Assembly (NCBI GenBank): GCA_963652335.1
Contig: CAVJSS010000001.1
Coordinates: 125,179 to 189,178 of the forward strand
Direction of reading: 5' to 3'
Source of the DNA: an uncultured Eubacteriales bacterium
GTDB taxonomy: Bacteria; Bacillota_I; Bacilli_A; RFN20; CAG-826
Length of the DNA stretch: 64,000 bases
A program made the position numbers and the translations under genes. Under the pieces are notes generated by a model. It made no database searches and was not told the origin of the DNA. It worked only from the letters and a program-made list of their open reading frames with translations. Positions 837-51,141 of the stretch are shown piece by piece; position 1 is the first letter of the stretch, and the number at the start of each line of letters is the position of its first letter.

Positions 837-837
837 A

Positions 838-1617: not shown

Positions 1618-1619
1618 GC

Positions 1620-2198
1620 ATGGGCTTTGTTACATTCTTGTTAGCCGTTCTAAGCGCGATGTTGGTCGATAATGTCGTCCTATCCAGATTCTATGGCATT
1701 TGTTCCTTCATAGGCGTCTCAAAGAAAGTCAATTCCGCCTTGGGAATGGGCTTGGCTGTAGTCTTTGTCATTATCATGGCAACTTTGATCTGCTACCCGC
1801 TTTATATGTTATTGGAAGCTGCCGGCATCCAATTCATGGACACGATAGCCTACATTTTGGTCGTGGCATGTTTGGTTCAATTAGTTGGCTTGTTCATCAA
1901 AAAATATTCGCCATCTTTATACAAATCTTTGGGCATTTATCTTCCTCTAATCACAACCAACTGCGCCGTTCTCGGCGTTGTTCAAGGAAATACAGATACC
2001 GGAAAGACCTTCGTTGAAGCATTGGCCAACGGCGTTGGAACCTCGGTTGGCTTCTTGCTTATAATCGTGGTTTTCAGTTGTATTCGCGTCAGATTGGATT
2101 CCGCCAATACCCCAAAAGCATGGAAAGGGGTTCCGGTGGCTCTTGCTACCGCGGCAATCATGGCTATCGCGATGATGGGCTTGACAGGACTTATCTGA
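1620..2198 (+). CDS. rnfA: Rnf complex subunit A
   Basis: VDNVVLSRFYGICSFIGVS...YLPLITTNCAVLGV is the RnfA/NqrE signature. The product is a polytopic membrane protein. Confidence 0.9.
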   Translation: MGFVTFLLAVLSAMLVDNVVLSRFYGICSFIGVSKKVNSALGMGLAVVFVIIMATLICYPLYMLLEAAGIQFMDTIAYILVVACLVQLVGLFIKKYSPSLYKSLGIYLPLITTNCAVLGVVQGNTDTGKTFVEALANGVGTSVGFLLIIVVFSCIRVRLDSANTPKAWKGVPVALATAAIMAIAMMGLTGLI

Positions 2199-2199
2199 T

Positions 2200-2412
2200 A
2201 TGTTGTTTCTTTCGAAGGGCGGTTATTTGGCCATCGCCATAGTCATCTTGGTTATCTTAATAGCTACCTTTATCGTTTCTTTTATCATCTATAGAAAAAC
2301 TCCGGTTCCAAAAGGCTGTGAGAACATAAAGATCGGTGGGGATAATTGCAAAGGCTGTTCGCATAAAGAATGCAGCCATCGCATACCTGATGAAAGTGAG
2401 GAAAAACAATGA
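2200..2412 (+). CDS. Small membrane protein with C-terminal Cys cluster (resembles FeoB-associated Cys-rich mini-proteins)
   Basis: 70 aa with one TM helix (LAIAIVILVILIATFIVSFIIY), then C-x9-C-x2-C-x4-C. The start is 1 nt after the rnfA stop, and its stop overlaps the next start (ATGA). Confidence 0.55.
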   Translation: MLFLSKGGYLAIAIVILVILIATFIVSFIIYRKTPVPKGCENIKIGGDNCKGCSHKECSHRIPDESEEKQ

Positions 2413-2792
2413 ATACGCCATATATCTCAATTAATTTGCTAGAATCTTCTTCCGCTGATGGATCTGTTTCCGGCATGACCATTCTCTGGGCCGTTTTGAT
2501 TCTTTTGGGAATTGGCCTTATCTTTGGGATCATTTTAGCCATTGCTTCAAAAGTCCTTTATGTCAAAGAAGACGAACGAATCGATGAGGTTGCCAAAATG
2601 CTTCCTGGCGCCAATTGCGGTGCGTGTGGCTATGCTGGGTGTCGCGCCTTGGCTGAGGCCATAGTCTCAAAGAAAGAAGAATGCATATCCAAATGCAAAG
2701 TCGGAAAGAAAGACAAGAATTTTGATCCTATCTTAAAATATTTGGAAGCCCATCCAGACGAGGACGGAACCAAATTCAAGACCCATCTATGA
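2409..2792 (+). CDS. rnfB: RnfB-like protein consisting only of the N-terminal TM anchor plus Fe-S domain (no polyferredoxin domain)
   Basis: TM helix (ILWAVLILLGIGLIFGIILAIA), then LPGANCGACGYAGCRALAEAI...CISKC, the RnfB N-terminal cluster motif. The ORF ends at 127 aa with ATGA overlap to apbE, and no CxxCxxCxxxCP motif follows. Confidence 0.75.
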   Translation: MNTPYISINLLESSSADGSVSGMTILWAVLILLGIGLIFGIILAIASKVLYVKEDERIDEVAKMLPGANCGACGYAGCRALAEAIVSKKEECISKCKVGKKDKNFDPILKYLEAHPDEDGTKFKTHL

Positions 2793-3757
2793 AAAAAGGT
2801 CTTAAGCTGCTGGCTTTATGGCCGTTGGCAACAGGATTGTCTGGCTGCGATTCGAATAAGATATACACCAAAACGGTGTATGCCTTTTCTACTTTTTTGG
2901 AGATGAAAATATCAGCAAAGGACGAAAAGATAATCAATCAAGCCGAATCGATGATTTCATATTTCAGCGAGATAACGGATTCATACAAAAAGTCAGACCA
3001 ATATGTCGGGGTTTATGATGTTAATCACACAAATGAAAAAATAGAGGTAAGCAAAGAATTATACTATATCCTCTATTTGGCTGATTGCATGAAGGAAGAG
3101 ACAAACGGCAACTTTTCGCCATATCTTTTCAATTTGTCGGTTCTTTATAAAAACGACTTTGCGATCAACGCCGTTCCTTCTTCATCGGAGATCGAGCCAT
3201 TGTTAGCGGAAGCCAACGAGACCAATTTGATGTTTTTCAAAGAAGACGGGGCCTATTATGTTCAAAGGAATGGAACAGGGCAAATTGACTTGGGTGGGAT
3301 AGCCAAAGGAGCTTGTTTGGATGCTTTGCATTCTTTGCTTGAAGAAAATGGGATAACTTATTATTTGGTAAGTTCCCAGAGTTCCATTTTGATGGGCGAA
3401 AAGGATTATTCCCCATCCTATTTCAAAATCGCCATCAGAGACAAACCAAACTGTCTTTTGAAACTCCAAAACTGTGGCTTAGCGACTTCGTCCATAAGTG
3501 AGCAGCGCTACGATATAGACGGAATAACCTATTCTCATATAATAGATCCCAAAACCGGATCGGCGGAAGCCAAACGTACGGCGGCTATCGTCAAAGGAGG
3601 CTTGGACGAAAATGCCAAATTAGATGCCTATGCGACGGCTTTCATGAATATGGAAGATAACGAAATAAAGGATTTCGTCGAAAAGCACAGTCTAAGTTCC
3701 TTGATAATAAACGGATCGGACAGCGTTTCGTATAATTTGGATACTTATGTCATTTAA
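2789..3757 (+). CDS. apbE: FAD:protein FMN transferase (ApbE/Ftp), lipoprotein
   Basis: Lipobox LATGLSGC. ApbE-type motifs IDLGGIAKG and YSHIIDPKTG. The gene is adjacent to flavinylated Rnf subunits. Confidence 0.85.
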   Translation: MKKGLKLLALWPLATGLSGCDSNKIYTKTVYAFSTFLEMKISAKDEKIINQAESMISYFSEITDSYKKSDQYVGVYDVNHTNEKIEVSKELYYILYLADCMKEETNGNFSPYLFNLSVLYKNDFAINAVPSSSEIEPLLAEANETNLMFFKEDGAYYVQRNGTGQIDLGGIAKGACLDALHSLLEENGITYYLVSSQSSILMGEKDYSPSYFKIAIRDKPNCLLKLQNCGLATSSISEQRYDIDGITYSHIIDPKTGSAEAKRTAAIVKGGLDENAKLDAYATAFMNMEDNEIKDFVEKHSLSSLIINGSDSVSYNLDTYVI

Positions 3758-5437: not shown

Positions 5438-5746
5438 TTATTCAACTCCGACAAACTTCTTCAATAAAGCAGCTGGTATAAAGCCAACCTGAGAACGGAT
5501 TTCCTTGCCGTTTTCGAAATAACGGAGGTCAGGAATGCTATAAACGTTGTACCTAGCGGCGATTTTTCCCAATTTATCGCAATCTACCTTAATGAAAGTT
5601 ATTTCAGGGTGTTGTTCAGCCAATTCCTCTATAAGTGGGCTAAGGCGCATACAAGGACCGCACCATGTCGCAAAGAAATCCACGACCACCTTATCGTTTT
5701 TCATTGCCTCTAAGAATTCGGCTTCGTTTTCTACGTGAATGAGCAT
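5438..5746 (-). CDS. trxA: Thioredoxin
   Basis: WCGPC active site. 102 aa from the internal ATG (MLIHVENEAEF), preceded by AGGAGAA. The longer ORF to 5869 overlaps the TraX gene. Confidence 0.9.
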   Translation of the reverse strand: MLIHVENEAEFLEAMKNDKVVVDFFATWCGPCMRLSPLIEELAEQHPEITFIKVDCDKLGKIAARYNVYSIPDLRYFENGKEIRSQVGFIPAALLKKFVGVE

Positions 5747-5762
5747 TTTCAAATTCTCCTTC

Positions 5763-6674
5763 CTATAAAGATAATAAAACAAAGATCGTTCCAATGATAA
5801 GGATATGCACCGGATAGTAAAGGTAGCTAACCCATCTGAACCATTTGGAATCATATCCACGCTTGCCATTATAAAGAATCAAAAAGAAACAAGAGATCAA
5901 TGCGAAGCTTCCTATCGAAGAGAAACACAATGGATCCCTTGAACCATAAACGAAAGACAAGCCATACATTATGACGACGCTGATGACCAAGACGCAAACA
6001 TTGGCCAAATTGAACATTCCTTGTCTTTTTTCAATGATTTCTTTCTCGTTCGATTCATATAAAAACGCTTTATCCGACAGCTTCGATGCCAAAGGCTCAG
6101 CGTAATAGAACCCTATCCCAAGCAACAAGGCGAACACCGAATAATCGGCTCTGATGAATTCAGGGAAATAGAGATAAAAAGAATCAAATCCATAAGCCCC
6201 AGCCAAATCGAAGCCATATGAGCAGCCAATCAAAATCAAAGGCAAAACGCATAGGGGTCGGAACTTTTTGCTTTCGTTGTTCAATAAAAAGAGAAATAAG
6301 CCAACATATAATAAGTCATTGAAAGCATTGGCTGGCATAGAACCCCCAAGACTGTTAAATTGCTCTATCTTAAGTCCGCAGGCTGCGGCGATGAACACCC
6401 CTAATCCGATTGCGAAAAAGGCTGCCCACATTATGAAAATCCTCAAAAGATATTTCTCGGGATTTTTAGATTTCTTAAGCGCTTGAACCAACAAAAATAT
6501 GAATATCGGCAATGCCAATCGTCCGACACATCTAAAAGCCTGTCCGACTCTTCCGATATCGGAAACGCTTGAATAAAATATGCCGATAAAGATTCCTATA
6601 TGATCTAATGTCATTGTCACAAAGCCGATTAATTTAAGCCAAAAAGAAGATAATATCTGCGTTTTTCCATTCAT
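5763..6674 (-). CDS. TraX family membrane protein
   Basis: LKLIGFVTMTLDHIG at the N-terminus and a polytopic 303-aa protein. Confidence 0.7.
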   Translation of the reverse strand: MNGKTQILSSFWLKLIGFVTMTLDHIGIFIGIFYSSVSDIGRVGQAFRCVGRLALPIFIFLLVQALKKSKNPEKYLLRIFIMWAAFFAIGLGVFIAAACGLKIEQFNSLGGSMPANAFNDLLYVGLFLFLLNNESKKFRPLCVLPLILIGCSYGFDLAGAYGFDSFYLYFPEFIRADYSVFALLLGIGFYYAEPLASKLSDKAFLYESNEKEIIEKRQGMFNLANVCVLVISVVIMYGLSFVYGSRDPLCFSSIGSFALISCFFLILYNGKRGYDSKWFRWVSYLYYPVHILIIGTIFVLLSL

Positions 6675-6675
6675 A

Positions 6676-7464
6676 TCAAATCACCATCAAAATCAATGCG
6701 AATATGTTGTTCATAATATGGGCGATCATCGATGCCCCGATTCCGAATCTATCGTTCGCAAAACACAATATAGCCCCGCAAATAACGTAATTCGGGATGT
6801 TTAGCCATTCTGCCAAATCAGGGTTGCTGAAATTGAAATGGATAAACCCAAAGAAAATCGCACATACGACATAAGCGATGGCTATGTGAGCTCTTTTTAG
6901 CAAATCGAACAGCCCTAAACGATATGTTATTTCTTCGCATATAGGACCAGCCAAACCCAAAAACATAAAGGCTAAGGGCTTAGAAAAAGAAAATACTTTT
7001 TCCAACGATTCCTGATTGGCGTTGGAGGAGATTCCATAATGAGCCAAAATCGCCGAATACCCGACATTGAATCCGACCAGGATTATTCCTACCGCGAATC
7101 CAAAGTACGTTCTTTTGTTCAAAAAACATTTGCCAATCGTCTTCCAATAATCGAAAGCGATCAAACTTAATATCAAAAAAAGGATTCCATAGGATGCATT
7201 CTGAACGATGCCATAATACGAAACGCTGTCGACAGGGTAAAACTTTTCGGTTATCGCAGCTACGATCAAAACGATCAATTGCAGTCCGATAAAACCAATT
7301 GCAAAGAAAAGGACTTCTTTTAGCAAAGAAGCCGATTCATTGACCGGATAGAGCTTTCTTGAAAATTCCGGATTGCTTCTTTTGCAATTCGGACAATGAC
7401 TGGCAGTCGGATCATAGAACGATCCGCAGCCTTCGCATTTTCTGTTCAAAAACCTAATTTTCAC
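6676..7464 (-). CDS. CPBP family intramembrane glutamic endopeptidase with N-terminal zinc ribbon
   Basis: CPBP motifs EEITYR, FGFIHF and HIMNN. N-terminal CxxC-x13-CxxC. Apparent GTG start with no clear SD, so the start is uncertain. Confidence 0.75.
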   Translation of the reverse strand: MKIRFLNRKCEGCGSFYDPTASHCPNCKRSNPEFSRKLYPVNESASLLKEVLFFAIGFIGLQLIVLIVAAITEKFYPVDSVSYYGIVQNASYGILFLILSLIAFDYWKTIGKCFLNKRTYFGFAVGIILVGFNVGYSAILAHYGISSNANQESLEKVFSFSKPLAFMFLGLAGPICEEITYRLGLFDLLKRAHIAIAYVVCAIFFGFIHFNFSNPDLAEWLNIPNYVICGAILCFANDRFGIGASMIAHIMNNIFALILMVI

Positions 7465-7603
7465 CAGATGATATTAACATAAAAAGTTCGATTGTTTGAT
7501 ATTAATCGTTTGGTTTGGCGCCATCAAACAAGCTTGCTTCTTAAATCGCACGCATACACGATGTATAATAAAAAAACGTTGACCAATCCTTGGAGGTTTA
7601 GCC

Positions 7604-10600
7604 GTGAACCTATTAATTGATGCAAGCAGCATTGTCAAATACGAGAACATAGCTTTATGGGTGTTGTTCGGACTTGTCCTTTTCGTTTTGCTATTTTCCA
7701 TTTTCCGCGGTGCTTTCCGCGGGTGGGCATATGGAACATATCGTTTGATTTTCTTTGCCATCGTCATAACCGTTTTGTTTTTGACATTGGGCAAAGTAAC
7801 CGAAGCGATAGGCAATATCGACCTCTCGAAATGGATAAGCCAAAGCATAAATCTCACAATCAGCGATAAAACGATAACCGCTCCAGTAACCAGCGTTTCT
7901 GGTACCATCACGGCGTTGATCGAAGATGCGATAAAAAAGTTCGACATGAATGTCGACCCGACCAATTTGGCTCAAATGGCGACTGGATTGACGCAATCTT
8001 TATTGAAGGTCTTGATGATATTCATCTATGGCATTTTGCTTTGGACGGTCGGCAAATTCCTTTGCTGGATCCTTTGGCACGCCGCTTTCAAATTCATCAT
8101 CCCAAAATCGAAACGCAAACTCACCAAAGAGGAAAAAACCGCAAATGACGCCCTTCCCCGCAGGCAAAGAAAGAAGACCATCTATCAAAAGGTTCGCGGC
8201 GTTTCCATGGCCCAAGAAGTGGTCATCAACCTTCTCCTTTTATCGATGCTGATCGTTCCGATAAGTGGTACCATCAATTCGATTGCCAACTCTTTCAACG
8301 GCACTTCGAAAGAGTCAACGGCAAGCGAAAAGCTAAAAGCCGATAATGATACGTTGAACACCATCCAAACCGCTTTGGATACCTATCAAAATTCCGTTTT
8401 CTCCAAAGCCTTTTTCGGATGGACGGTCAACCAAGAAGGCAAAAGCTGGGACACCCAACTTCTTTCTTTCTTGTCAAAATCGAACGTAACGAAGGATATG
8501 ACCATCTCCGTCATCGATGTCGTTTCGGAAGCAGCGGGAATCGGAAAAGAGGTGATTGAATCCGGACTGCTTTCAGAGGGAGGAACGACCTTCGATAAAA
8601 TCTATCTTTTGCTTACTACGGAATATGGCGTGAAGATTATCTCTACATTAGCAAACTCTGAATTAGTCACTTCTATTTTGCCAATGGCATTGGAATTCGC
8701 CGCGAACATCGATACGATCAAAAACTACATAGGGAATTCCTTAGGCATCGATTATTATGGCTACAACTGGTCAGCGACAGTTGAAGAATTGGGCAACATG
8801 ATCACCGATCTTCAATCATCTGATATTTTCACTTTCTTCACCGATGAAAACGGAGAGGCTCATTTCGATACCGATTCGGTGGCTTCTATTTTCTCTGAAA
8901 ATTCCAAAAAGGCGATGAACGCTTTGTTTGAAAGATTCGCCAAACGTCCAGACGAAAAGAATTTATTCAGTGATTTGATTACAGTGTTCTTAGTCAACTA
9001 TGCCTTGAATTCAACCAGCGATTCCGAAGGTATTGCTTTAAATGACTTCTTGCCGAGCACCGATGGATGCGAATATGAAACCGATGACAACACAGGTCGG
9101 AAATACATTTCCAAATTGAATGAAGATTACGAAAATCTTTCGTTAGGAGATGAACTCCAAGTCGTTTACGGGTCTTTATGCGATATCAATGATTTGGACG
9201 ATAGATTGACCGCTCTTATCGTCGATTCCTTAGTCGATGAGGAAAAAGAATTGGACACCGATGTTTTGATCGATATCGTTGTTGATAACATCGACGAAAT
9301 AAACGAGATCATCGTTGGCAAAGACGATATAGAAGAAGGCAAAACATGTTTGCTTGATTGTTCATTTATCACTTATGGCATGGGCGCCATAACGGATTTG
9401 ATCGGTAGCAGTGTTTCAAGTGCTTTGAACGTCGAAATCGACATGAGCGGCGTCAGAAATGAGCTTTTCTCCGAAACTCTTCCGTTCGAAACCAGAAAGG
9501 CCAACGCCAAATCGGAATTGGGAGGAATGCTCAATTTGATAAAATCCTTCGTGAACGCCGACCCAATTTGCAAAGAATTCATCAAAGATTTGGATGCGAC
9601 CCCGGGAATCGTTTATGAGCCTAATGGCAATTTGCATTCCATAGAAGATGGCTTATTGGATGGATTTATCGCCTTATCTGAAGGCATTGACGATTCAAAG
9701 ATATTGACTGCGATTCTGCCTAAGGCTGCAGAAAGTCTTTTATCCAACAATGAAGCGTTGAAAGAATTGGGCATAGATGGATTGAATACCGATGTGGATG
9801 GTTTTGGCAAAGAACTAGCCAAATTACTTAAAGTAGCCAAAGAATGCATGCCGTTGATCCAATTCGTAACCAACAACGCCGCTTCTTTGTCTGGCGCCTC
9901 TTCAAAAGAAATCAGCGAAGTCTTAAATGGCTTAGCCGATTATCATGACCAAATGGTCACATTGTTAAATGGAATCTGTGCCAACAAGATCATAAATGAC
10001 GAAAACAACACCACGTATCGCAACTTATTGCAAAAATTGCTTGGGAACATATTGGGAAGGGAAATAAATTTGCCTGCCGACATTGATCCATCAACCGAAA
10101 ATGTCGTGGTAGCCGACCTTATTTATGGATTGGGCAAAAACTGCACCCCAACCGTCCTCAACGCTCTTTTAAACGGCGGTTCCGTTTCCCTGTCTGATTT
10201 AGGGGGCGTTGATTTCGCCGAAATATTGAAGCCTTTGGATTCTTCCGATGTTTTTGGTGATATAATCGCCGATCTGCTCGATGACGCCATCGTTCCGCTA
10301 TTGGGTTCGTCGGCAACCGATTCCAATCTTTCCTTCAAAAATGTCACGAGTTGGCAAAATGAGGGAGACGCTTTGAATTCTATTATCAAATTCGGCGCGG
10401 AAATCGGTGATATTTCGAATATCGATCTATTCAATTCCGACCCTGATGCCATCTCTTCGATTATCAAGGCATTGTCGCAATCCCAGATTTTCAACAACAA
10501 AACCAGCGACGGAATAGAATATACGTTCGGTAAATTTTTCTATAAGACGATCATTGACTCTTTAGGCGATTCTATTTCATTCTTCGAAGACAAAGACCCA

Positions 10601-13600
10601 AATGGGAAAACCGCTGAAGAAAGAACCCAAGCTCTTTGCAATTCGATGTCATCCGTAAGTCAAAGCGGGTGGGAGCAAGAAGCGGAAGCTTTCGGCGATA
10701 TTCTGGCCAATTTGAATAAGGTATTAAACGGTAGCAGCCTTTCTGGAACTTTGAATATCAAAGACATCAAAGCTGCTGCGGTAAAAGGATTGTTGGAAGA
10801 GTTAACGACATCAACGACAATCGGGCGTCCGATCTCCTATCATTTATACGAACAAATCGCCACCAATTTGATTGATGCAGGCATCGATATCGGAATGGGC
10901 GATCACGGATACATGAATATCGATTGGATTTGGGACGCTTTCGAAAGCGAGACACCCGATGCCATTTATAACGAAATGTACTACTTGAGCCTTTTGATAG
11001 AAACCGTGTTGGATCCTTCCTATGGCTTGCTAGATGATTCAGGCAATATATCCTCTGATGGGTTGGATTTGTCTAAGATGTCAGGGAAATATATGCTCAC
11101 TCCTTTGACCAAATCGATGGCTAAATCAATCGTTTTCAATACCATTCCAGACGGAGAAACAACTCCTACGGCTTTCGAAAATCTTCTTACCGAGATGATT
11201 GCCGATTCCGGAATCTATGGAACGAATGACAAACAAAGCAAAGCCGAAATATTGGAATATGTCCAAAATGTTTCGCCAGGCACCCAAGAGATTTCCAAAG
11301 CCAAATTCTCTAACCGTCTTTCTGACGATGGGCCTTGGAATGAGGAATGCGAGGCTTTAGGAAATTTGGGCGATTCGATCAACGAATTGGGAATCAGCAT
11401 CTCTGATTTCAGCCCATCTTCGATCTTCAAAAATTCAGTTGGCGAATTGCTCAATGAGCAAGAACGCGAGACCAAGCGATTGGCTTTAAACGATGTCGTT
11501 TCTGCAGTCAACGATTCAAAAATCCTTTACCATTTGCTCCCTAATCTGATCAAGACCGGTATCGATAGCGTGGCCTCTAGTTTGGGCGGAAGCGCAACAC
11601 CTAATTATTATTACGTGGGCAAAGGCATTAACGCCGATCCGTACGGAAAGGATGAAATCGAGAACCTTACTTATATTATCTATTATGCGGCCCAAGCCGA
11701 TTTAAGCGTCGATATCAACGAATTGGATATTGATTCCGCTTCCGAGATTTTAACCTGCTTGGCCAAATCCCATATCTTCAATAGCGTTTCTAACGACGAA
11801 ACAAGCAACGAGACATTCTTCCAATCCGTCATGGCGGATGTCTATTCCAAAGACGAAATAGCGAATTACTATTATCGAGTCGAAAACCCAAAGGACAATC
11901 CTGAATACAATAAGTCGATTTCCTACACGGATTCGCGGAGCAAAGCCATCGAAACGTTGGCTGAATTGTTCCCGGCTATGGAAACCAGTTCTAGCTGTGA
12001 TTCCCAAAAGAACCTCGAATTGCTCAACGGCGATTCCAATTCTTTGAAGAGTTTCGTCAAAGTCATCCAAGACAATAAAAAGGCTTATGAAAAGATAACG
12101 TCAAACAACGTTATGGAATTAGACAGCGAGACGATTAAAACGATTTTCAAAGAATTGTCGGGCAACAAGCTATTCGCCGATATCTTGGTTAATGCTTTGG
12201 GAAAGACGTTCTCGGATGGCTTTGCTTCATCGATGATCGATATGAGCAACGCCAACCCATACTATTGCTATTGGCTTAGAGACGATGGGACTGTCGAATC
12301 CAATGATTCGGAAGCCGATTTCACCAAGACGATAGGCGATGACGAAATCGATGTTTTGGCCGACTTCATCCCATTCTTCAATGAAAATTCGAAGATGTTC
12401 GACGATCTTTCTTCTTTGTCTATCGCTTCTAGCACAATAGAAACTTTTAAGAGCATGCTTAATATGCTTTATGATTCCTATATTTTCCATAACGGTTTGG
12501 CGTGGGATCAAATGGGTACGAAAGCCAAATCATCCTGGCAGAGCGATCTAACCGTATTCGAACAGGCATATGGTCTGATCATCAAAGAATCTGGTTTGGC
12601 TGATATGAATTATTCTTCTAGCTTTGATGCGAAATATGCTAGTGCCGAAGAAAAATTGAACGATTACATAAAATCATTTACTGCCGGTAAGTTGGTCTCT
12701 TCTCATTCAAAGGATTGGAAAAAAGAAATCGATGCCTTGACAACCGATGGAAAAAACGGTGGAGCGTTGAATGTCTTACTTAATCTCGGAGTGATCGGCG
12801 AAGACGGAATGTCTGCCGAAAGCATAGATTTGATGAGTTTCTCCCCTGACAAGCTTTCCAAGATGCTCAAAGCCTTGAATGGAATCGATATCGTAAAAGA
12901 AGTCGTTCCTTATAAGATTAAGGACACCTTAAGCGATACTATCGATTTCTCTTCATATAGTAGCCTAGCCCTTTCGTCGAATTCGGTCAGTTCGTTTGAT
13001 TCGGCCGAAACTTGGGGAGACATAGGCATCTTCTCCAAACTGATCATTTCAGGAAACGGAGCTGTTGTCGTTTCTTATACTTCCGATGGCAGCAACTGGA
13101 AAGAAGCTTATAACGGCTCTCTTGCCGGATCGGAAACGATAACGATGGAAAACGCCGTCGCTTTCAAGATCGACGGATCGGCATCAATCAGCGACGTAGA
13201 AGTCGATACGGCCAACTATTTCTTATCTCAAGAGACTTATGGGGAAGATGATGGAGCCATAGATTCGCTGACTACTTTGTTAAATAGCCTATATTTGAAA
13301 AACGGCGGATCATATCCAACCATCGATTCAAGCGATCCCGATGTTATCGAAACCTTGCTAGGCAGCATTACCGATATATTGGTTTTCATCGATGATGACA
13401 ATGGATTCTATGCAAGAGGGTTCGATGAGCATTATAAATCCATAGCCGAAAACGAATCCTTCTTATCCAGAGACGTTTTCATGAGAAATATGCTTAAAGT
13501 CACTTACACCGACGATGGCAAAAACTATGATTTGGATATCGGGAATCATTTCGCTGACCCATTAAGCGACATCCATGATATTTTCGAATCGGATACATAT

Positions 13601-14302
13601 GACGCAAATGTCGAAGGAAACTGGTTTTCAAGCCAACTCAAAGAAGCCGAAAAGGTTGAATTCATCATATCCGGAAATATCGGTGAGATAACATCTGACG
13701 GCAAGACTTTGCCGCTTTACCATTCAAAGACGGAATCCCTCGCCGGCCTCAAAAACGATGCTGGAGACGAATATGTTTTCGAGACATTGATAAAAGAAGC
13801 CACAACTTCTCAATTCGGCTCCACGATCGTTGATAATATGGCCAGATCATTCTTGCTTGATACCGAAAATTATGCGGTTGCTGGCGTTTATTTCAAAGAA
13901 GGCGTCGTCAGCGATCCTAATGATGACGAAATCAGAAAGTCCTCATCGACGGAAGCCAAAGAAATCAACGAAGGATATCGTGATTCATTCAAAGTCGTCG
14001 AAGTCGAAGCTGATAAAAACACGTTGATCAGGATGCTGAAGATTACAGAAGCCTATGGCATCAAAGCGTTCGCCGATGGCACTTCAAGTGCAGCCGACTT
14101 CAAAACCCTTATGTCAGAAATGGATGATAATAATTCGATTATTGATAAATTCTTCTACAACGCCGCGATTTATGATTACATGGTCAATCGTGGTATCTAT
14201 CATGGTGAGATCGAAATTCCATCCCATATGGATAAGATTTCCATTCCAAACGCTTTCGCAACTGATTTCACGTTTGCATCCGTTGGGGCTTTAGCTAATT
14301 GA
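7604..14302 (+). CDS. Giant (2,232 aa) membrane-anchored acidic protein of unknown function
   Basis: Uninterrupted 6.7 kb ORF. GTG start 7 nt after GGAGG, with an extended -10 (TGTATAAT, 7562-7569) upstream. About 4 TM helices lie in the first ~225 aa. The remainder is D/E/S/N-rich with no motif I recognise. Confidence 0.8.
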   Translation: MNLLIDASSIVKYENIALWVLFGLVLFVLLFSIFRGAFRGWAYGTYRLIFFAIVITVLFLTLGKVTEAIGNIDLSKWISQSINLTISDKTITAPVTSVSGTITALIEDAIKKFDMNVDPTNLAQMATGLTQSLLKVLMIFIYGILLWTVGKFLCWILWHAAFKFIIPKSKRKLTKEEKTANDALPRRQRKKTIYQKVRGVSMAQEVVINLLLLSMLIVPISGTINSIANSFNGTSKESTASEKLKADNDTLNTIQTALDTYQNSVFSKAFFGWTVNQEGKSWDTQLLSFLSKSNVTKDMTISVIDVVSEAAGIGKEVIESGLLSEGGTTFDKIYLLLTTEYGVKIISTLANSELVTSILPMALEFAANIDTIKNYIGNSLGIDYYGYNWSATVEELGNMITDLQSSDIFTFFTDENGEAHFDTDSVASIFSENSKKAMNALFERFAKRPDEKNLFSDLITVFLVNYALNSTSDSEGIALNDFLPSTDGCEYETDDNTGRKYISKLNEDYENLSLGDELQVVYGSLCDINDLDDRLTALIVDSLVDEEKELDTDVLIDIVVDNIDEINEIIVGKDDIEEGKTCLLDCSFITYGMGAITDLIGSSVSSALNVEIDMSGVRNELFSETLPFETRKANAKSELGGMLNLIKSFVNADPICKEFIKDLDATPGIVYEPNGNLHSIEDGLLDGFIALSEGIDDSKILTAILPKAAESLLSNNEALKELGIDGLNTDVDGFGKELAKLLKVAKECMPLIQFVTNNAASLSGASSKEISEVLNGLADYHDQMVTLLNGICANKIINDENNTTYRNLLQKLLGNILGREINLPADIDPSTENVVVADLIYGLGKNCTPTVLNALLNGGSVSLSDLGGVDFAEILKPLDSSDVFGDIIADLLDDAIVPLLGSSATDSNLSFKNVTSWQNEGDALNSIIKFGAEIGDISNIDLFNSDPDAISSIIKALSQSQIFNNKTSDGIEYTFGKFFYKTIIDSLGDSISFFEDKDPNGKTAEERTQALCNSMSSVSQSGWEQEAEAFGDILANLNKVLNGSSLSGTLNIKDIKAAAVKGLLEELTTSTTIGRPISYHLYEQIATNLIDAGIDIGMGDHGYMNIDWIWDAFESETPDAIYNEMYYLSLLIETVLDPSYGLLDDSGNISSDGLDLSKMSGKYMLTPLTKSMAKSIVFNTIPDGETTPTAFENLLTEMIADSGIYGTNDKQSKAEILEYVQNVSPGTQEISKAKFSNRLSDDGPWNEECEALGNLGDSINELGISISDFSPSSIFKNSVGELLNEQERETKRLALNDVVSAVNDSKILYHLLPNLIKTGIDSVASSLGGSATPNYYYVGKGINADPYGKDEIENLTYIIYYAAQADLSVDINELDIDSASEILTCLAKSHIFNSVSNDETSNETFFQSVMADVYSKDEIANYYYRVENPKDNPEYNKSISYTDSRSKAIETLAELFPAMETSSSCDSQKNLELLNGDSNSLKSFVKVIQDNKKAYEKITSNNVMELDSETIKTIFKELSGNKLFADILVNALGKTFSDGFASSMIDMSNANPYYCYWLRDDGTVESNDSEADFTKTIGDDEIDVLADFIPFFNENSKMFDDLSSLSIASSTIETFKSMLNMLYDSYIFHNGLAWDQMGTKAKSSWQSDLTVFEQAYGLIIKESGLADMNYSSSFDAKYASAEEKLNDYIKSFTAGKLVSSHSKDWKKEIDALTTDGKNGGALNVLLNLGVIGEDGMSAESIDLMSFSPDKLSKMLKALNGIDIVKEVVPYKIKDTLSDTIDFSSYSSLALSSNSVSSFDSAETWGDIGIFSKLIISGNGAVVVSYTSDGSNWKEAYNGSLAGSETITMENAVAFKIDGSASISDVEVDTANYFLSQETYGEDDGAIDSLTTLLNSLYLKNGGSYPTIDSSDPDVIETLLGSITDILVFIDDDNGFYARGFDEHYKSIAENESFLSRDVFMRNMLKVTYTDDGKNYDLDIGNHFADPLSDIHDIFESDTYDANVEGNWFSSQLKEAEKVEFIISGNIGEITSDGKTLPLYHSKTESLAGLKNDAGDEYVFETLIKEATTSQFGSTIVDNMARSFLLDTENYAVAGVYFKEGVVSDPNDDEIRKSSSTEAKEINEGYRDSFKVVEVEADKNTLIRMLKITEAYGIKAFADGTSSAADFKTLMSEMDDNNSIIDKFFYNAAIYDYMVNRGIYHGEIEIPSHMDKISIPNAFATDFTFASVGALAN

Positions 14303-14306
14303 TAAC

Positions 14307-14912
14307 ATGCCATTGACCATTCTTGAAGAAACGACTTTCGAGAAGGAAGTGCTTCGTTCTCGATTTATTTGTTCGCTCCGCCATTGCGAAAGCGATGATG
14401 ATTTCGATAAGCATTTGATGGATGCTAGGGCAAAATACCCGAAAGCCACGCATTATTGCTATGGAGCCAAAATCGGATCCAATGAAAAAATGGGCGATGA
14501 TGGTGAGCCAAACCATTCGGCCGGACTTCAGATATTGTCTTCGATCCGCCATAAAAAGCTCGAAAACGTTTCTTTGATTGTCATTAGATATTTCGGAGGG
14601 ACAAAACTCGGGTTGCCCAGATTGACTAGGACTTATAGAGAATGCGCGGAAGAAACGATTTCCCTTTCGAGAATCAAAGAAGCGAAAAAGGGGATGGGCG
14701 TCACCATTTCCCTTTCTTATTCGGAACTAGATCAAATTCGTTATCAACTTGATAGGAGTGGGTTCCAAATTGGTGGTATCATTTTTGAAGATGAAGTTAA
14801 AGTCTCTTTCTTAGGCGAAGAGAGGAAGATCGAAGATTATCTTAAGAATTTCAAAAAGGAGAGCATCCTCTCCAAAAACGAAACCACAATATATTCGGAG
14901 GTAAAAATATGA
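14307..14912 (+). CDS. yigZ: IMPACT/YigZ family protein
   Basis: ATHYCYGAKIG...DDGEPNHSAGLQIL is the UPF0029/IMPACT N-domain signature. The gene starts 4 nt after the giant ORF stop. Confidence 0.8.
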   Translation: MPLTILEETTFEKEVLRSRFICSLRHCESDDDFDKHLMDARAKYPKATHYCYGAKIGSNEKMGDDGEPNHSAGLQILSSIRHKKLENVSLIVIRYFGGTKLGLPRLTRTYRECAEETISLSRIKEAKKGMGVTISLSYSELDQIRYQLDRSGFQIGGIIFEDEVKVSFLGEERKIEDYLKNFKKESILSKNETTIYSEVKI

Positions 14913-16210
14913 TTCCAGCGTCGGAATTCGAAATGCGTAGGGAGCGTTTGTTGGAAACATTGCCAGATAGATGCGCTGTTCTTTTGTTCGGAGGTGTCCC
15001 AAAGATTTCTTCGGCGGACGAGGATCTTCCTTTCGAAATAAACCGCAATTTTTATTATTTGACGGGAATCGATCAGGAGGATTCCGCTCTTTTGCTGGTC
15101 AAAGCAGATGGAGAATCCAAAGAATGGCTTTTCATTCTGCCCTTCGATCGCAATAAGGAACGCTGGTACGGCAAACGTTTGACCATTGAGGAAGCTAGCG
15201 AAAAGTCTGGGATCAAAAACGTCCTTTTGAACCAATCATTGGAATCTAAGTTCGAATCGATATTCAACCCTTCATTAAGGGAATATGGGGATGTCAAAGA
15301 ACTTTATTTGGATTTGGATCGCGAGATAAAAATCGCCGACGGAGAATCGACAAAGACCTTAAAAAGCAAAATCAAAACCCGTTACGAAGAAATCGACATA
15401 AAAGATGTCTATTCCAATATCACTAAGCTGCGCTTGAGGAAATCAAATAGAGAGATTTCCGAATTGAGAAGCGCTATTTCCGCCACGAAAATCGGTCTTA
15501 TGGCCACTTGGAAGAAAATGCAGCCAGGAGTTAGAGAATATGAATTGGCGGATGAATTTCTCAGGGCGATAAACGATGACACTGGTTATCAAGGTCTTTC
15601 CTTTCCGACCATTATGGCTTCTGGGATCCACGGCACCTGCCTCCATTATCCAACGCCGCTAGATCTTATCCATGATGGCGATTTGGTTTTGATGGATTTG
15701 GGGGCTAGGCATGGATATTATTGCGCCGACGTTTCCCGAACCCTTCCAGCCAACGGCAAATTCACCAAAGAACAAAGAATCGCTTACGATATTGTTTTGC
15801 GCTGCAACGAAATGGTTGAATCGATGGCCAAACCTGGAATGACAATCAAAGAACTCGATAGGCTTACCGTCGAATTCTTGGCCAAAGAATGCGTGAAAGC
15901 AGGTTTTATCAAGCGTGAAGAGGACATTGTTGAATATTTCTTTCATGGCGTATCGCACTTAATCGGTTTGGATACCCACGACCCTTATGGTGCGCCATTG
16001 GACCGTTCTTACAAAAATATCCCATTGGAACCGGGGATGGTGATTTCCAATGAACCCGGATTATATATGGAAGATCGTTGTATCGGCATTCGCATCGAAG
16101 ACGACCTCTTGATCACTCCAAAAGGCGCGGAATGCCTGACCAGGGATATCATCAAGGATCCAGACCAAATCGAGACTTTCCTTGCTTCAAAAAACAAGAA
16201 AAACAAATAA
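14909..16210 (+). CDS. pepP: Xaa-Pro aminopeptidase (M24B)
   Basis: M24 metal-ligand motifs (DLGARHGYYCADVSRT, HGVSHLIGLDTHD, NEPGLY, IRIEDD). ATGA overlap with yigZ. Confidence 0.85.
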   Translation: MIPASEFEMRRERLLETLPDRCAVLLFGGVPKISSADEDLPFEINRNFYYLTGIDQEDSALLLVKADGESKEWLFILPFDRNKERWYGKRLTIEEASEKSGIKNVLLNQSLESKFESIFNPSLREYGDVKELYLDLDREIKIADGESTKTLKSKIKTRYEEIDIKDVYSNITKLRLRKSNREISELRSAISATKIGLMATWKKMQPGVREYELADEFLRAINDDTGYQGLSFPTIMASGIHGTCLHYPTPLDLIHDGDLVLMDLGARHGYYCADVSRTLPANGKFTKEQRIAYDIVLRCNEMVESMAKPGMTIKELDRLTVEFLAKECVKAGFIKREEDIVEYFFHGVSHLIGLDTHDPYGAPLDRSYKNIPLEPGMVISNEPGLYMEDRCIGIRIEDDLLITPKGAECLTRDIIKDPDQIETFLASKNKKNK

Positions 16211-16229
16211 CTATCAGATTGGAGATTTT

Positions 16230-17714
16230 ATGGAAAAATACGTACTTTCGATTGACCAAGGCACGACTTCCACCCGCGCAATTTTAATCAATGGCAAAGG
16301 AAGAGGCGTTTATATGGCCCAACGCCCCGTTGATTGTTATTACCCAGAGCCTGGTTGGGTCGAGCAAGATCCTGAACGTATTTGGATTTCCGTGGTCGAC
16401 GTCATCAACGAATTGTTGATCATATCCGGCGCCATTTGGGATGATATCGCCGCAATAGGCATAACCAATCAGCGCGAAACAACCATCGTTTGGGACAAAA
16501 ACACCGGCAAGGCTATCTATAACGCAATCGTTTGGCAGTCCAAACAAACCCAATCGATCTGCGAAAAGATGGAAGACAAAACCGAATTCATCGCCGAAAG
16601 GACCGGCTTAAGGCTTAACCCTTATTTCTCCGCATCGAAGATTCGCTTCATTTTGGATAATGTCGGCGGTGCCCAAGAAGCTGCCGAAAAAGGTGATTTA
16701 TGCTTTGGCACGATCGATAGCTGGATAATCTACAAATTGACCAAAGGCAATCGTTACACTGACTGCTCAAATGCCTCAAGGACGATGTTATTCAATATCC
16801 ATACGATGAAATGGGACGATGAACTTCTTTCTCTTTGGAATATTCCCAAATCGATGTTGCCTGAAGTGTTGGATAATGACGCTGATTTCGGCAGTGCGAA
16901 TTTCTTTGGGCAAAACAGTGTCCATATTCATGGCGTGGCTGGGGATCAACAAGCCGCTTTGTTTGGACAATGCTGTTTTAAAATAGGAGAATCGAAAAAC
17001 ACATACGGAACCGGCTGCTTTATGCTTATGAATACCGGAGATAAGGCCGTAGCATCCAAAAACGGCCTCTTGACTACGGTGGCTTGGAGAGTGAATGGTA
17101 AAACGACCTACGCTTTGGAAGGCTCCGTTTTCATTGGTGGTGCCGTTATCCAATGGGTCCGTGATCAGACTCGCTGGATCGAAGATGCGTCGGATTCGGC
17201 CTATTATGCCGCTAAGCGCCCGGATACCGGCGGAGTTTATTTCGTCCCGGCATTCGTTGGTTTGGGCACTCCGTATTGGGATGACGACGCAAGAGGCGCT
17301 ATCTTTGGTCTAACCAGGGGAGTCGATAGGCATAATATAACAAGAGCTGCCCTTTATTCGATCGCATATCAAAGCAAGGACGTCATCGACACCATGAAAA
17401 AAGACGCAGGATTGGATTTGACCGTGCTGAAAGTCGATGGTGGAGCTTCCAAAAACGATTTGTTGCTTCAATTTCAATCCGATATCCTCCAATGCGAGGT
17501 CAGAGTTCCTGTCCAAGTGGAAACGACCGCATTGGGCGCTGGATATTTGGCTGGCTTGGGATCTGGATTTTGGAAGAGCTTGGAAACCATTTCCAAACAG
17601 CTTGTGATCGATCGAGTTTACCAGCCTAAAATGGAAAAAGAAGAAGCCGAACGCCTTTCTAGAGGCTGGAGAAAAGCCGTTGAAGCAACCAGGGTTTTCA
17701 AGGTGGATCAATGA
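16230..17714 (+). CDS. glpK: Glycerol kinase
   Basis: MEKYVLSIDQGTTSTRAIL...NQRETTIVWD...GDQQAALFGQ. The internal ATG at 16230 follows GGAG. Confidence 0.95.
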   Translation: MEKYVLSIDQGTTSTRAILINGKGRGVYMAQRPVDCYYPEPGWVEQDPERIWISVVDVINELLIISGAIWDDIAAIGITNQRETTIVWDKNTGKAIYNAIVWQSKQTQSICEKMEDKTEFIAERTGLRLNPYFSASKIRFILDNVGGAQEAAEKGDLCFGTIDSWIIYKLTKGNRYTDCSNASRTMLFNIHTMKWDDELLSLWNIPKSMLPEVLDNDADFGSANFFGQNSVHIHGVAGDQQAALFGQCCFKIGESKNTYGTGCFMLMNTGDKAVASKNGLLTTVAWRVNGKTTYALEGSVFIGGAVIQWVRDQTRWIEDASDSAYYAAKRPDTGGVYFVPAFVGLGTPYWDDDARGAIFGLTRGVDRHNITRAALYSIAYQSKDVIDTMKKDAGLDLTVLKVDGGASKNDLLLQFQSDILQCEVRVPVQVETTALGAGYLAGLGSGFWKSLETISKQLVIDRVYQPKMEKEEAERLSRGWRKAVEATRVFKVDQ

Positions 17715-18810: not shown

Positions 18811-18849
18811 TAAAAAAGCGAGAACAAAACGGTTCTCGCTTTTCCTTTT
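18811..18849. terminator. Bidirectional rho-independent terminator
   Basis: AAAAAAGCGAGAAC-aaaacg-GTTCTCGCTTTTCCTTTT lies between convergent genes. Confidence 0.6.
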
Positions 18850-18859
18850 CATCGATCCA

Positions 18860-20512
18860 TCAAACGTCCGAGAAACATGAACCACCGATGAATTCGCGTA
18901 TTATCGAATTGTTTGGGACCCATTCGTCAGGTATATCGACGAAGAATTTCAACATTTTAAGAAGCCTTCTGGCATCCGGTGAATATGGGCTTTCTTTATC
19001 AATTGCCTCAAGCATTGGCTGAGCGACTTTCTTCATGATAGGCAATTCGTATGGAAGGAATGAATTGAAAACATAATCGCTGTCTTCTTGGGTTTCGTAA
19101 ATCCATTTGAATTCCCCTTGACGGACACCCGGCCACATCGACAATGTTTCTTCGGCCGACGAACCGCGGAACTTTTTGTCTCTGACGATGCGGCGAATCA
19201 AACGAAGATCGGTAAGGGATACCGGATTATGATTGTCGATGTTTATCTGAGCGACGGGAGCGATGAAGATTTTGAATTTGTTTTGCTTTGGGATGGCCGA
19301 AGTCATCAATTCGTTCAAGGCATGGATGCCCTCGATGATGATCGGCTCGTTCTTTCCTATCTTTAGCACCCTGCCTGGAACGGAATGGCCTAAGACGAAA
19401 TCGAAATGCGGCAATGTCACTTCTTTTCCGGCAATAAGATCGAACATATCCGAATTGAATTGATCGATGTCCAAAGCCTCTATCGATTCGAAATCCAACG
19501 AACCGTCTTCTAGTCTCGGTGATTCTTCCCTAGGCTTATAATAATCATCCAAAGAAATGCGAACCGTATTTATGCCTCTGGCCAAAAGTTCGATTCGGAG
19601 CCTGTTTGCGAAGGTCGTTTTGCCAGAGGAAGAAGGACCGGCGATGCAAATAAGACGAATTTGGTCGATATCATCTTCGATCAATTGGCCCAATTCGGTA
19701 AGTTGTCGGTAATGTCTAGCTTCGCCAACGTTGATCAATTCGATGGCGCCGGCTTCTTCGATGCGCTTATTGATGGCAGCGACTGAGCTTAAGCCAACCG
19801 TGCTTTGCCATGCATGTCCTTCTTGAAGGACTCTGGAGAAGGTCGAAGCGTCACGGAAATCAGGGATTTTTCCTCCGCATTCGCTTCTTGGATATTGCAT
19901 CAAGAATCCCGGCGAATACAAACGAAGCCTGAAATCTTTTATATAACCGGTGGATGGGACCATTACTTGGTAGTTGTAATTCAAATAGCCATCGCATTCA
20001 TAAAGGTGTACGGTTTTCTCTTGGCGGTAATTAAGGATGTCTTCTTTATCGTGATATCCAAGCTTCTTATATATTTTCCTGGCTTTATCGTTGGTTACGA
20101 CCACGCGGTTGAAAGGGAGGTCGGCGGCGATGATCGATTCCATTTCGTGTTTGATTTTCAATAACATCGCCATGTTCGGCGTGTATCCATCATCAAGCAA
20201 TTGGATAAGGACGCAACGTGAAACATTATAAGAGAATTTGACATTCAGCTTAGGGTAACAGCGTTTGAAAGCCATTGCGCAGATATACCGGAGGCAAGAT
20301 TCGTATATTTTCACTGATTCATGGTATGTAAGATCTAGAAATTCTACTTCGGCGTCGTAATATATTTCGTAGCTTAATTCCCTTACGCGGTTATTGACTT
20401 TGGCGCAGATATAACGTTTGTCGTTCATCCCTAGTTGGTCTAGCAATCCGACCAACGAGATTTTCTTATCGAATGACATCTTCTGCCCAAATGTGGTGAT
20501 TTCGAACGGCAT
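18860..20512 (-). CDS. Uridine/nucleoside kinase-family protein with long N-terminal (ThrRS/TGS-like) extension
   Basis: P-loop ICIAGPSSSGKTTFANRL in the C-terminal half. The start at MPFEITTF is preceded by AGGAGGGA. Confidence 0.75.
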   Translation of the reverse strand: MPFEITTFGQKMSFDKKISLVGLLDQLGMNDKRYICAKVNNRVRELSYEIYYDAEVEFLDLTYHESVKIYESCLRYICAMAFKRCYPKLNVKFSYNVSRCVLIQLLDDGYTPNMAMLLKIKHEMESIIAADLPFNRVVVTNDKARKIYKKLGYHDKEDILNYRQEKTVHLYECDGYLNYNYQVMVPSTGYIKDFRLRLYSPGFLMQYPRSECGGKIPDFRDASTFSRVLQEGHAWQSTVGLSSVAAINKRIEEAGAIELINVGEARHYRQLTELGQLIEDDIDQIRLICIAGPSSSGKTTFANRLRIELLARGINTVRISLDDYYKPREESPRLEDGSLDFESIEALDIDQFNSDMFDLIAGKEVTLPHFDFVLGHSVPGRVLKIGKNEPIIIEGIHALNELMTSAIPKQNKFKIFIAPVAQINIDNHNPVSLTDLRLIRRIVRDKKFRGSSAEETLSMWPGVRQGEFKWIYETQEDSDYVFNSFLPYELPIMKKVAQPMLEAIDKESPYSPDARRLLKMLKFFVDIPDEWVPNNSIIREFIGGSCFSDV

Positions 20513-20700
20513 TTTAAGGATCCCTCCTCTAGAAAAGAATGAAATCATATCGATAAGAAAGACTTAAATCAAGGATTAGGAAAACAACTCATCGATTATT
20601 GAACGAACGTTCACCTAAATAAACTTTAATTTCTCAAGAAATTACCGAAAAAAGCAAAAGAGGTTCGATTAAATTTTGGTTTGGAGTAAAATAAGGGCAT

Positions 20701-50883: not shown

Positions 50884-51141
50884 TGAAATGTCTCCTTTCT
50901 TTGCGCTTAAACAAAGTCCGGGGGTATCCCTGTTTCCCGGGTGTCGTTCCTTTCGGCCTTGTAGCTTGAGGCTTACTTTGATTAAATGAACGACGTCAGG
51001 CGGAAACATGACAACCTGCTGCTCTATATAAGCGTGAATACTTTAAGTATTCGGGGCTTCTTCGTCAAGCGAAAAATGCTTTTGAAAGAAAATATCTTCC
51101 CTTGTATGCGTCCGTATTATGCGTGTGCTAAGATATTACGT

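Follow-up and report, generated by a model that had tools for sequence, protein, structure and literature searches.

We analysed a 64,000-nucleotide (nt) window, meaning the whole stretch of contig CAVJSS010000001.1 from position 125,179 to 189,178 (GenBank assembly GCA_963652335.1), from an uncultured bacterium of the RFN20 lineage of Bacilli. A giant gene of this window (positions 7604 to 14302) encodes a membrane-anchored protein of 2,232 amino acids (aa), hereafter the giant protein. Judged by sequence comparison, it is a member of a large, unnamed and previously undescribed family of unannotated proteins. Its N-terminus and its entire C-terminal domain of ~2,000 aa are likely to be located outside the cell, and we tentatively infer, at close to even chances, that it serves as a constitutive scaffold or stalk projecting from the cell surface.

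The ORF listing of the window gave one uninterrupted open reading frame (ORF) of 2,232 codons plus stop with a GTG start, in keeping with a first-pass annotation of this DNA, made from the sequence without database searches, that had described a single ORF of 6.7 kb. A second, independent assembly (GCA_963654045.1) contained an ORF of identical length (6,699 nt) with 60 substitutions, zero insertions or deletions (indels) and 99.1% nucleotide identity. Since no indel was present in this assembly and intact syntenic orthologues were found in 38 species, the ORF is a genuine gene. Its G+C content matched that of its surroundings. Between the two strains the giant gene differed in 27 codons synonymously and in 30 non-synonymously, and the ratio of non-synonymous to synonymous polymorphism (pN/pS), a rough value in view of the small counts, was ~0.30, whereas pepP and yigZ had values of 0.07 and 0.16, respectively, between these strains. 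The giant gene is under purifying selection, with a looser constraint than that acting on yigZ and pepP.

The alignment showed that orthologues share the first residue of the giant protein, with the N-terminal consensus MNLL(I/L)DAS. Both a good Shine-Dalgarno sequence and an extended -10 element had been claimed upstream; the former was upheld, with GGAGG at a spacing of 7 nt, and the latter was upheld with a qualification, as the TG abuts TATAAT one base nearer than in the canonical TGnTATAAT and a convincing -35 hexamer was absent. No two-hexamer promoter was listed upstream of the gene in a consensus scan. The motifs LPXTG (LP.[TSA]G), YSIRK, RTX (GGxGxD), Walker A and HExxH were all missing from the giant protein in a motif scan, and Pfam and NCBIfam gave zero matches, whether the protein was searched whole or as five tiles, in agreement with the earlier statement that no enzymatic, adhesin or nucleotide-binding motif was recognisable. 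A nucleotide-binding or metalloprotease enzyme was rejected on the absence of both Walker A and HExxH.

The description of the protein as an orphan had to be given up. A word-indexed protein search returned 16 relatives of 1,573-2,791 aa (21-99% identity), most of them aligned over most of their length, none named and none with a Pfam domain; further searches of this kind yielded known members only with a profile of the 16 sequences and no matches with an N-terminal profile, hydrophobic words having probably crowded the list of candidates. When a single genome of each GTDB species was scanned with the eight closest sequences, 38 loci came to light in as many species, one locus per genome record and in every species at the same genomic place. 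With a profile of residues 1-1114, an exhaustive search by HMMER then extended the family to 480 clusters (50% identity) at E<=1e-3, of which 307 remained at E<=1e-10 and 212 at E<=1e-30; with few exceptions, the top 150 clusters were 1,200-3,000 aa in size and aligned from their own N-terminus. None of ten clusters looked up bore an informative name (one was a 'hypothetical protein'), none of 24 distant members had a secure match to a Pfam domain, and no description of the family was found in the literature searched. The window itself held no paralogue of the giant protein.

The genomes carrying the gene were metagenome-assembled genomes (MAGs) obtained from human, chicken, goat, reindeer and comparable samples, with labels that read uncultured 'Bacilli', 'Bacillales', 'Mollicutes' or Candidatus Enteromonas. 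As far as seen, the family is confined to gut and rumen Bacilli of the RFN20 type ('Mollicutes-like'), which are uncultured. The organism labels of several 'cleanbin' MAG records with the giant-gene block (L002, L007, L012, L014, L016, L022 and L025) look wrong: they name Alistipes shahii, Roseburia hominis, Lachnospiraceae, Oscillospiraceae, Bacteroidales or Paludibacteraceae, and the block is of the Bacilli type. Enteromonas corresponds to the GTDB order RFN20, family CAG-826, and genome sizes of 1.2-1.8 Mb were reported for two MAGs in the same paper (PMC8035907); the giant gene would take up ~0.4-0.5% of such a genome. An absence of peptidoglycan is predicted for both CAG-826 and CAG-288, and RFN20 as a whole has been reported without srtA/B (PMC10868615). 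A PknB-type (Stk1) serine/threonine kinase of 313 aa encoded in the window (36780-37721, + strand) matched positions 2-272 of a 563-position PASTA-kinase model and is a bare kinase domain from which PASTA repeats are absent, which fits a peptidoglycan-less lineage. The kinase gene is preceded by a gene for a Stp1-type PP2C phosphatase (36044-36850) and its end is overlapped by rpe.

The N-terminal anchor was the best-conserved part of the giant protein. In an alignment of the first 400 residues of orthologues from 31 species, to which the following statements on 31 orthologues refer, G36, G40, W158, H159, F162, K163, R171, K172 and P219 were invariant and N225 nearly so. The loop that follows the first transmembrane helix (TM1) had the consensus RG(L/A)FRGW(R/K/A)YGTYR, replaced by GLxKG(I/V)WK in distant members. 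The first-pass annotation had seen about four hydrophobic helices in the first ~225 residues, which were located at residues 16-34, 48-66, ~133-157 and 206-224; AlphaFold2 modelled residues 119-165, the region of TM3, as a single uninterrupted helix, which makes four spans rather than five. Averaged over the 31 orthologues, loops 1 and 3 carried net charges of +3.7 and +6.3, whereas the N-terminus, loop 2 and the first 40 residues past TM4 were negative (-1.6, -2.5 and -3.4, respectively). Because loops 1 and 3 are basic, which by the positive-inside rule would place them in the cytoplasm, and because the large domain is acidic and poor in Cys and Arg, both the N-terminus and the C-terminal domain are predicted to face outwards. 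Past TM4, Y261, S264 and D283 of a juxtamembrane segment were invariant in the 31 orthologues and D259 among the 16 closest relatives; the aligned Y-x-x-S pair was also invariant in the 24 distant members.

The ectodomain of ~2,000 aa carries a net charge of -184 (-59 to -293 across orthologues) and abounds in S, D, N and T, which substantiates the compositional bias noted earlier. Its paucity of Cys was likewise borne out: Cys made up 0.65% and Arg 1.2%, compared with 1.6% and 4.3%, respectively, across the remaining 59 ORFs of the window, amounting to a 2.5-fold and a 3.6-fold depletion. Comparison of the family profile with itself by hhalign gave off-diagonal matches with E-values of 6e-36, 1.5e-18 and 7.6e-15, in addition to weaker ones, at offsets clustering near 105, 225, 345-460, 510-590, 600-690 and 800-857 residues. 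The base period of the repeat is ~105-110 aa, and pairs form super-repeats of ~215-225 aa. A sub-profile of residues 1125-1345 detected, besides the copies listed in Table 1, further ones at residues 924-1071 (E 8e-6) and 370-470 (E 2e-5). These self-matches and sub-profile copies identify residues ~300-1786 as degenerate tandem repeats, in which the signatures W-x-x-E...L and S-x-(I/V)-F-N recur. Conservation runs over the full length of the protein and peaks in the anchor, the juxtamembrane segment and residues 910-965, where an aligned W-x-x-E pair was invariant in the 24 distant members as well; it is lowest in a beta-sandwich near the distal end.

AlphaFold2 was run on two halves of the protein with the alignment of 16 sequences and gave a mean predicted local distance difference test score (pLDDT) of 74.8 with a predicted template modelling score (pTM) of 0.55 for residues 1-1114, and a pLDDT of 85.0 with a pTM of 0.69 for residues 1115-2232. 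The modelled ectodomain was 58% helical, in 96 helices, and 6.5% strand, short beta-hairpins being interspersed along it. For the C-terminal half, the pTM was fairly high, which suggests that this half is a continuous packed array and not a set of independent beads. The top Foldseek match in the Protein Data Bank (PDB) was CRM1 for the N-terminal half (E 7e-3) and BIRC6 for the C-terminal half (E 5.8e-4, the sole match under E 1e-3); lower matches comprised transportin, CAND1, cohesin SA2, UBR4 and mTOR, all of them alpha-solenoids, at template modelling scores (TM-scores) of ~0.1-0.14. No specific relative was found by Foldseek for either half in PDB or for the C-terminal half among the viral models of BFVD, and the best match of the 16-sequence profile to all PDB chains (influenza HA2, E 0.3) was noise. 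The likeness to HEAT/ARM alpha-solenoids (CRM1, transportin, CAND1, BIRC6) is one of general architecture only, namely superhelical arrays of paired helices: apart from the low TM-scores, the Pfam HEAT and Arm families were unmatched, the repeat of ~105-225 aa greatly exceeds the roughly 40-47 aa of a HEAT repeat, and the domain is predicted to be extracellular. Modelling and structure searches of the kind proposed in the first-pass annotation, run here on the two halves, returned alpha-solenoid neighbours only for the helical part, and no characterised family was matched. The large membrane-anchored helical scaffold that it had envisaged agrees with the helix content, the 96 helices, the solenoid neighbours and the conserved anchor, and on the question of inside or outside, which it had left open, the loop charges and the acidic, Cys- and Arg-poor composition favour the surface and disfavour its cytoskeletal or division-tether option. 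What had escaped it were the internal repeats and the inserted beta-sandwich, as well as how large the family is and the conserved, divergent CPBP/TraX neighbours.

The beta-sandwich, with a block pLDDT of ~79-89, interrupts the helical structure at residues 1787-1868, and residues 1801-1850 within it were the most variable stretch of the alignment (conservation 0.23). In the Foldseek results the sandwich by itself resembled small jelly-roll modules, including the Ena spore-appendage subunit 7a02 (probability 0.99, TM-score 0.45), YPM and the claudin-binding domain C-CPE of Clostridium perfringens enterotoxin. Orthologues were 2,098-2,809 aa in length, apart from intact short forms of 1,342 and 1,338 aa in two species, UBA6865 (L006, 9995-14023) and UBA4691 (L008, 9786-13802). 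In both, the protein ends past the part that aligns up to residue ~1307 and yigZ comes directly next; the distal half, and with it the beta-sandwich, has been lost by natural deletion. The extent of the repeats thus varies between species. As intact forms of ~1,340 aa exist in these two species, the distal half is, to judge from the sequences, dispensable in some lineages.

Table 1. Features of the giant gene, its product and the adjacent genes (positions in the window; residues refer to the giant protein)
Feature	Position	Strand	Basis and remarks
Giant protein gene	7604..14302	+	ORF calls; intact in independent strain and in 38 species
Putative -10 hexamer TATAAT	7564..7569	+	Read from sequence; TG at 7562-7563 directly before
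Shine-Dalgarno GGAGG (7592-7596), 7-nt spacer, GTG (7604-7606)	7592..7606	+	Sequence
N-terminal membrane anchor, residues 1-231	7604..8296	+	Hydropathy, 31-orthologue alignment, AlphaFold2 helices
TM1, 16-34; predicted cytoplasmic loop 1, 35-47 (RGAFRGWAYGTYR); TM2, 48-66	within anchor	+	Hydropathy, alignment
Predicted outside loop, 67-132 (~65 aa, beta-hairpin inside); TM3, ~133-157	within anchor	+	Hydropathy, AlphaFold2
Basic, predicted cytoplasmic loop 3, 158-205 (WHxxFKxxIPKxxRK); TM4, 206-224	within anchor	+	Alignment
Conserved juxtamembrane segment, residues 245-300 (LKADNxTYxTIxxxVDxYxNSxFxKxFFxW)	8336..8503	+	Alignments
Predicted extracellular alpha-solenoid of degenerate tandem repeats, residues ~300-1786	8501..12961	+	Profile self-comparison, AlphaFold2
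Best-conserved ectodomain motif, residues 910-965 (SFxNVTxWxxEG...IGDLSNIDxFxSDP...LxxSQIF)	10331..10498	+	Alignments
Super-repeat copy, residues 1125-1345	10976..11638	+	Reference unit of repeat search
Super-repeat copy, residues 1358-1555	11675..12268	+	1125-1345 sub-profile, E 5.9e-11
Super-repeat copy, residues 1582-1778	12347..12937	+	1125-1345 sub-profile, E 3e-10
Inserted six-strand beta-sandwich, residues 1787-1868	12962..13207	+	AlphaFold2 strands
C-terminal helical domain, residues 1869-2232, with conserved tail (...IPNAFATDFTFASVGALAN)	13208..14299	+	AlphaFold2, alignment
yigZ/IMPACT	14307-14912	+	Family match; 4 nt past giant stop
pepP	14909-16210	+	Family match
glpK (ORF)	16182-17714	+	Family match
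DUF5677 protein, 364 aa	17711-18805	+	Family match; 47-81% identity in most relatives
Strong bidirectional terminator hairpin, 12-14 bp stem	18812..18845		Ends five-gene run; longest-stemmed in scan
CPBP/Rce1-like intramembrane protease with N-terminal zinc ribbon	6676-7464	-	Family match
TraX-family membrane protein	5763-6674	-	Family match
Thioredoxin	5438-5869	-	Family match

The giant gene is the first of a five-gene run, followed by yigZ, pepP, glpK and the DUF5677 gene, and between 7604 and 18805 only weaker terminator-like matches were present on the + strand (5-8 bp stems, 3-4 GC pairs). Its close succession by yigZ, pepP and glpK had been noted before and was confirmed, and the proposal that it heads a core operon rather than sitting in a mobile island accords with the synteny in 38 species and with the terminator map. 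Counted over genome loci with enough flanking sequence, the CPBP gene was immediately upstream on the opposite strand in 32 of 35 cases and TraX next in 30 of 33; downstream, yigZ was found in 22 of 25 and pepP in all 23, glpK being usual and followed by DUF5677. The giant gene is single-copy and vertically inherited in a fixed neighbourhood. Among relatives the giant protein diverged to 22-67% identity, compared with 45-85% for PepP and 61-87% for GlpK. The CPBP/TraX/thioredoxin block was kept beside the giant gene even at 21-23% identity, where the outer flanks change (L001-L038, L048-L050); a functional link of this block with the giant protein is possible.

In the reading that we favour, a surface scaffold or stalk, TM4 and the preceding basic loop would act as a signal-anchor, the Sec machinery would export the solenoid, and the latter would remain tethered via the four-helix domain, of which the invariant cytoplasmic loop WHxxFKxxIPKxxRK may touch lipid head groups or a partner. 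On a sortase-less and probably wall-less cell, numerous copies would together make up a semi-rigid coat or layer of stalks with negative charge, which would space, shield and organise the membrane surface and provide a large binding surface. The membrane-proximal half would fulfil a core, conserved role and the variable distal half with its beta-sandwich may be an optional contact or ligand-binding end. The location of the gene in a run with yigZ, pepP and glpK closed by a single strong terminator provides a constitutive context. Several points weigh against this reading. The function has been deduced solely from topology rules, composition and predicted fold, and none of the analyses indicated a binding partner or ligand. 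The N-terminal half of the AlphaFold2 model is only moderately confident, pN/pS was obtained from just 57 differing codons, and the probable wall-less state of the source organism is deduced from its relatives and from the one PASTA-less kinase. To our knowledge, extracellular alpha-solenoids of such size are not an established class, and precedent is scant.

A somewhat unlikely alternative is that the protein is an adhesin 'leg', in which the repeat stalk presents a distal binding head (beta-sandwich and C-terminal domain) to the mucus of the host, to plant particles or to other cells, following the logic of Gli349 of Mycoplasma mobile. Gli349 has the same order of parts, with an N-terminal membrane segment, ~100-aa repeats and a distinct C-terminal region (PMC6376172), and belongs to a wall-less cell, as inferred for the giant protein, a likeness by description only; no NCBIfam family matched the giant protein at E<=0.01, hence no relationship to Gli proteins was detected by that route, and neither Gli123/Gli521 partners nor a paralogue of the gliding ATPase were seen nearby, atpA and atpD of the window scoring as ordinary F1 subunits. 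A binding head would suit a beta-sandwich that varies more than any other part and looks like small binding modules (C-CPE, for example), as well as a gene that evolves faster than its neighbours in a lineage that is reported to lack sortases and would need membrane-anchored adhesins. However, this gene is, in every species, single-copy, strictly syntenic and part of a housekeeping run rather than a variable island; the conserved part is the membrane-proximal half, the distal half being absent in two species; Pfam revealed neither a lectin or Ig domain nor any other of known binding function; and the repeats are helical and packed (pTM 0.69) rather than strung like beads. Alternatively, the protein might be a precursor that is processed, the four-helix domain being a leader or export module, CPBP (perhaps with TraX) the maturing enzyme, and the solenoid being shed as an S-layer-like or matrix layer. 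The persistence of the CPBP/TraX block at 21-23% identity, the signal-peptide-like arrangement of TM4 after a basic stretch with invariant P219 and nearly invariant N225, and the acidic, Cys-poor composition that is typical of S-layer proteins are compatible with this, but we consider it quite improbable: the four-helix domain is the most conserved part and includes invariant cytoplasmic-loop residues, which is unexpected of a discarded leader, small residues at -1/-3 after TM4 were not conserved in the alignment, and a conserved neighbourhood is by itself no proof of a functional link. Moreover, SLH, CWB2 and other wall-binding or S-layer anchoring domains of Bacillota were absent according to Pfam, the N-terminus being the four-helix domain instead. 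More speculatively, and with little probability, the CPBP/TraX/thioredoxin block and the giant protein could form a dedicated sortase-independent display system, in which the CPBP protease and the TraX-type membrane acyltransferase would mature or modify the four-helix anchor and the solenoid would polymerise into an exoskeleton-like coat replacing the mechanical role of the lost wall in RFN20.

A cytoplasmic location, with the large domain forming a membrane-tethered, EzrA-like cytoskeletal or division scaffold, is very improbable. It would account for ~105-aa helical repeats that recall spectrin-like repeats and for a core, housekeeping-linked gene, and alpha-solenoids are mostly intracellular, as were all those matched here by Foldseek. 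It would, however, place the basic loops (+3.7 and +6.3) of 31 orthologues outside, against the positive-inside rule, and would leave a domain depleted in Cys and Arg inside the cell. A test for EzrA-type scaffolds was negative, as the EzrA models of NCBIfam were unmatched and the loop charges put the large domain outside; besides, the window has a separate EzrA-like gene (50986-52881, + strand, 631 aa; best E 3.4e-39, under the curated cut-off, with ~70-170 residues preceding the best matches), and therefore a division scaffold is already present in the organism. That the ORF is an assembly artefact, a fusion or a decaying pseudogene, the objection foreseen in the first-pass annotation, is refuted by the same-length ORF in GCA_963654045.1 and by intact orthologues in 38 species. 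Nothing was found in support of it, the shorter forms in two species being the sole irregularity, and the gene is also intact in hundreds of metagenomic clusters, conserved over its full length, constrained in its pN/pS and modelled with confidence by AlphaFold2.

The closest functional analogues are Ebh/Embp, giant and largely alpha-helical staphylococcal surface proteins with tandem repeats of ~125-170 aa (PMC9302970), which share with the giant protein an acidic, mostly helical, membrane-anchored and tandem-repeat character within Bacillota. They differ in that FIVAR, GA and DUF1542 matches were absent from the giant protein (Pfam; whole, five tiles and 24 distant relatives), for which reason a FIVAR/GA protein was rejected. 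The modes of anchoring differ as well, the giant protein having an N-terminal four-helix domain and Ebh/Embp a signal peptide and a C-terminal membrane segment. In addition, its model is a packed solenoid encoded by a core syntenic gene, whereas Ebh/Embp are strings of three-helix bundles and accessory adhesins. Two further candidates were discarded: a sortase substrate, as LP.[TSA]G occurs nowhere, the C-terminus reads ...FTFASVGALAN and RFN20 is reported to lack srtA/B; and an RTX, Big, Rib or Ig adhesin, as GGxGxD and Pfam matches were absent and the model is mainly helical, with 58% helix and 6.5% strand.

A comparison with CvpA/Colicin_V (PF02674) suggested that a distant relationship of the anchor to this family is plausible but not established. 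Both have four membrane helices, with both termini on the outer side in CvpA and, as predicted, in the anchor. The basic G-x-x-[RK]-G motif after TM1 corresponds to RGFVRE in Escherichia coli CvpA, RGAFRGW in the giant protein and GLxKGxWK in distant members. When a 93-sequence anchor profile was compared with eight proteobacterial CvpA proteins by hhalign, residues 24-72 were aligned locally with CvpA residues 7-55 over 49 columns (probability 63%, E 6.9e-5), putting TM1, the motif and TM2 in register; TM3 and TM4 were aligned in global mode only, and this four-helix alignment reached just 12.6% probability. PF02674 did not match the giant protein even at E<=10 and its gathering score was not reached, while Colicin_V gave weak matches to two of 31 orthologue anchors (best E 0.023) and two of 24 distant members (1.2e-4), VTT_dom being equally weak. 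No bona fide CvpA was found by phmmer among all fetched loci. The giant protein is unlike CvpA in the 65-aa outside loop between TM2 and TM3 and in the longer basic loop 3. A likeness is that some members of the CvpA family, for example MarP of Mycobacterium tuberculosis, bear a C-terminal extracytoplasmic domain, as is predicted for the giant protein.

The guts of humans, poultry and ruminants widely harbour RFN20 and related 'Mollicutes-like' Bacilli, none of which has been cultured and whose cell surface is almost undescribed. Because of its share of the genome and its presence at the same place in all 38 species of the genome scan, the giant protein is a strong candidate for the principal protein that is exposed by these cells to host, phages and immune system. 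Giant, repetitive, membrane-anchored surface proteins are an already known kind; what is new here is a sizeable unannotated family with a clear architecture and a likely extracellular location. If the favoured surface reading is true, the giant protein would be an unusual example of an alpha-solenoid of very large size that acts on the outside of a bacterium. A definition of the family is now within reach, as a hidden Markov model (HMM) could be built from the alignments, and the family could serve as a lineage marker and as a target for metaproteomics, surface labelling and cryo-electron tomography of enrichment cultures.

The giant gene has a housekeeping neighbourhood, with genes of the Rnf complex, ATP synthase, priA, rlmN, leuS and tyrS. 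An Rnf complex in this reduced genome is indicated at 820-3757 (+ strand) by rnfE, rnfA and an ApbE-like flavin transferase, together with a short rnfB-like ORF of 127 aa that covers no more than the N-terminal part. The terminator at 18812-18845 is shared with a convergent gene (18860-20548, - strand) for a 562-aa protein with 59-66% identity in relatives, of which only residues ~292-500 match uridine kinase and the N-terminal ~290 residues have no NCBIfam assignment. A 462-aa ORF resembling RqcH/fibronectin-binding protein A (28864-30252, - strand) matched models of 567-645 positions in two separate stretches and may be reduced. On the contig of one distant family member (L048, 1-2631), a gene for an RHS/YD-shell repeat protein of >1,900 aa lies just beyond the conserved block.

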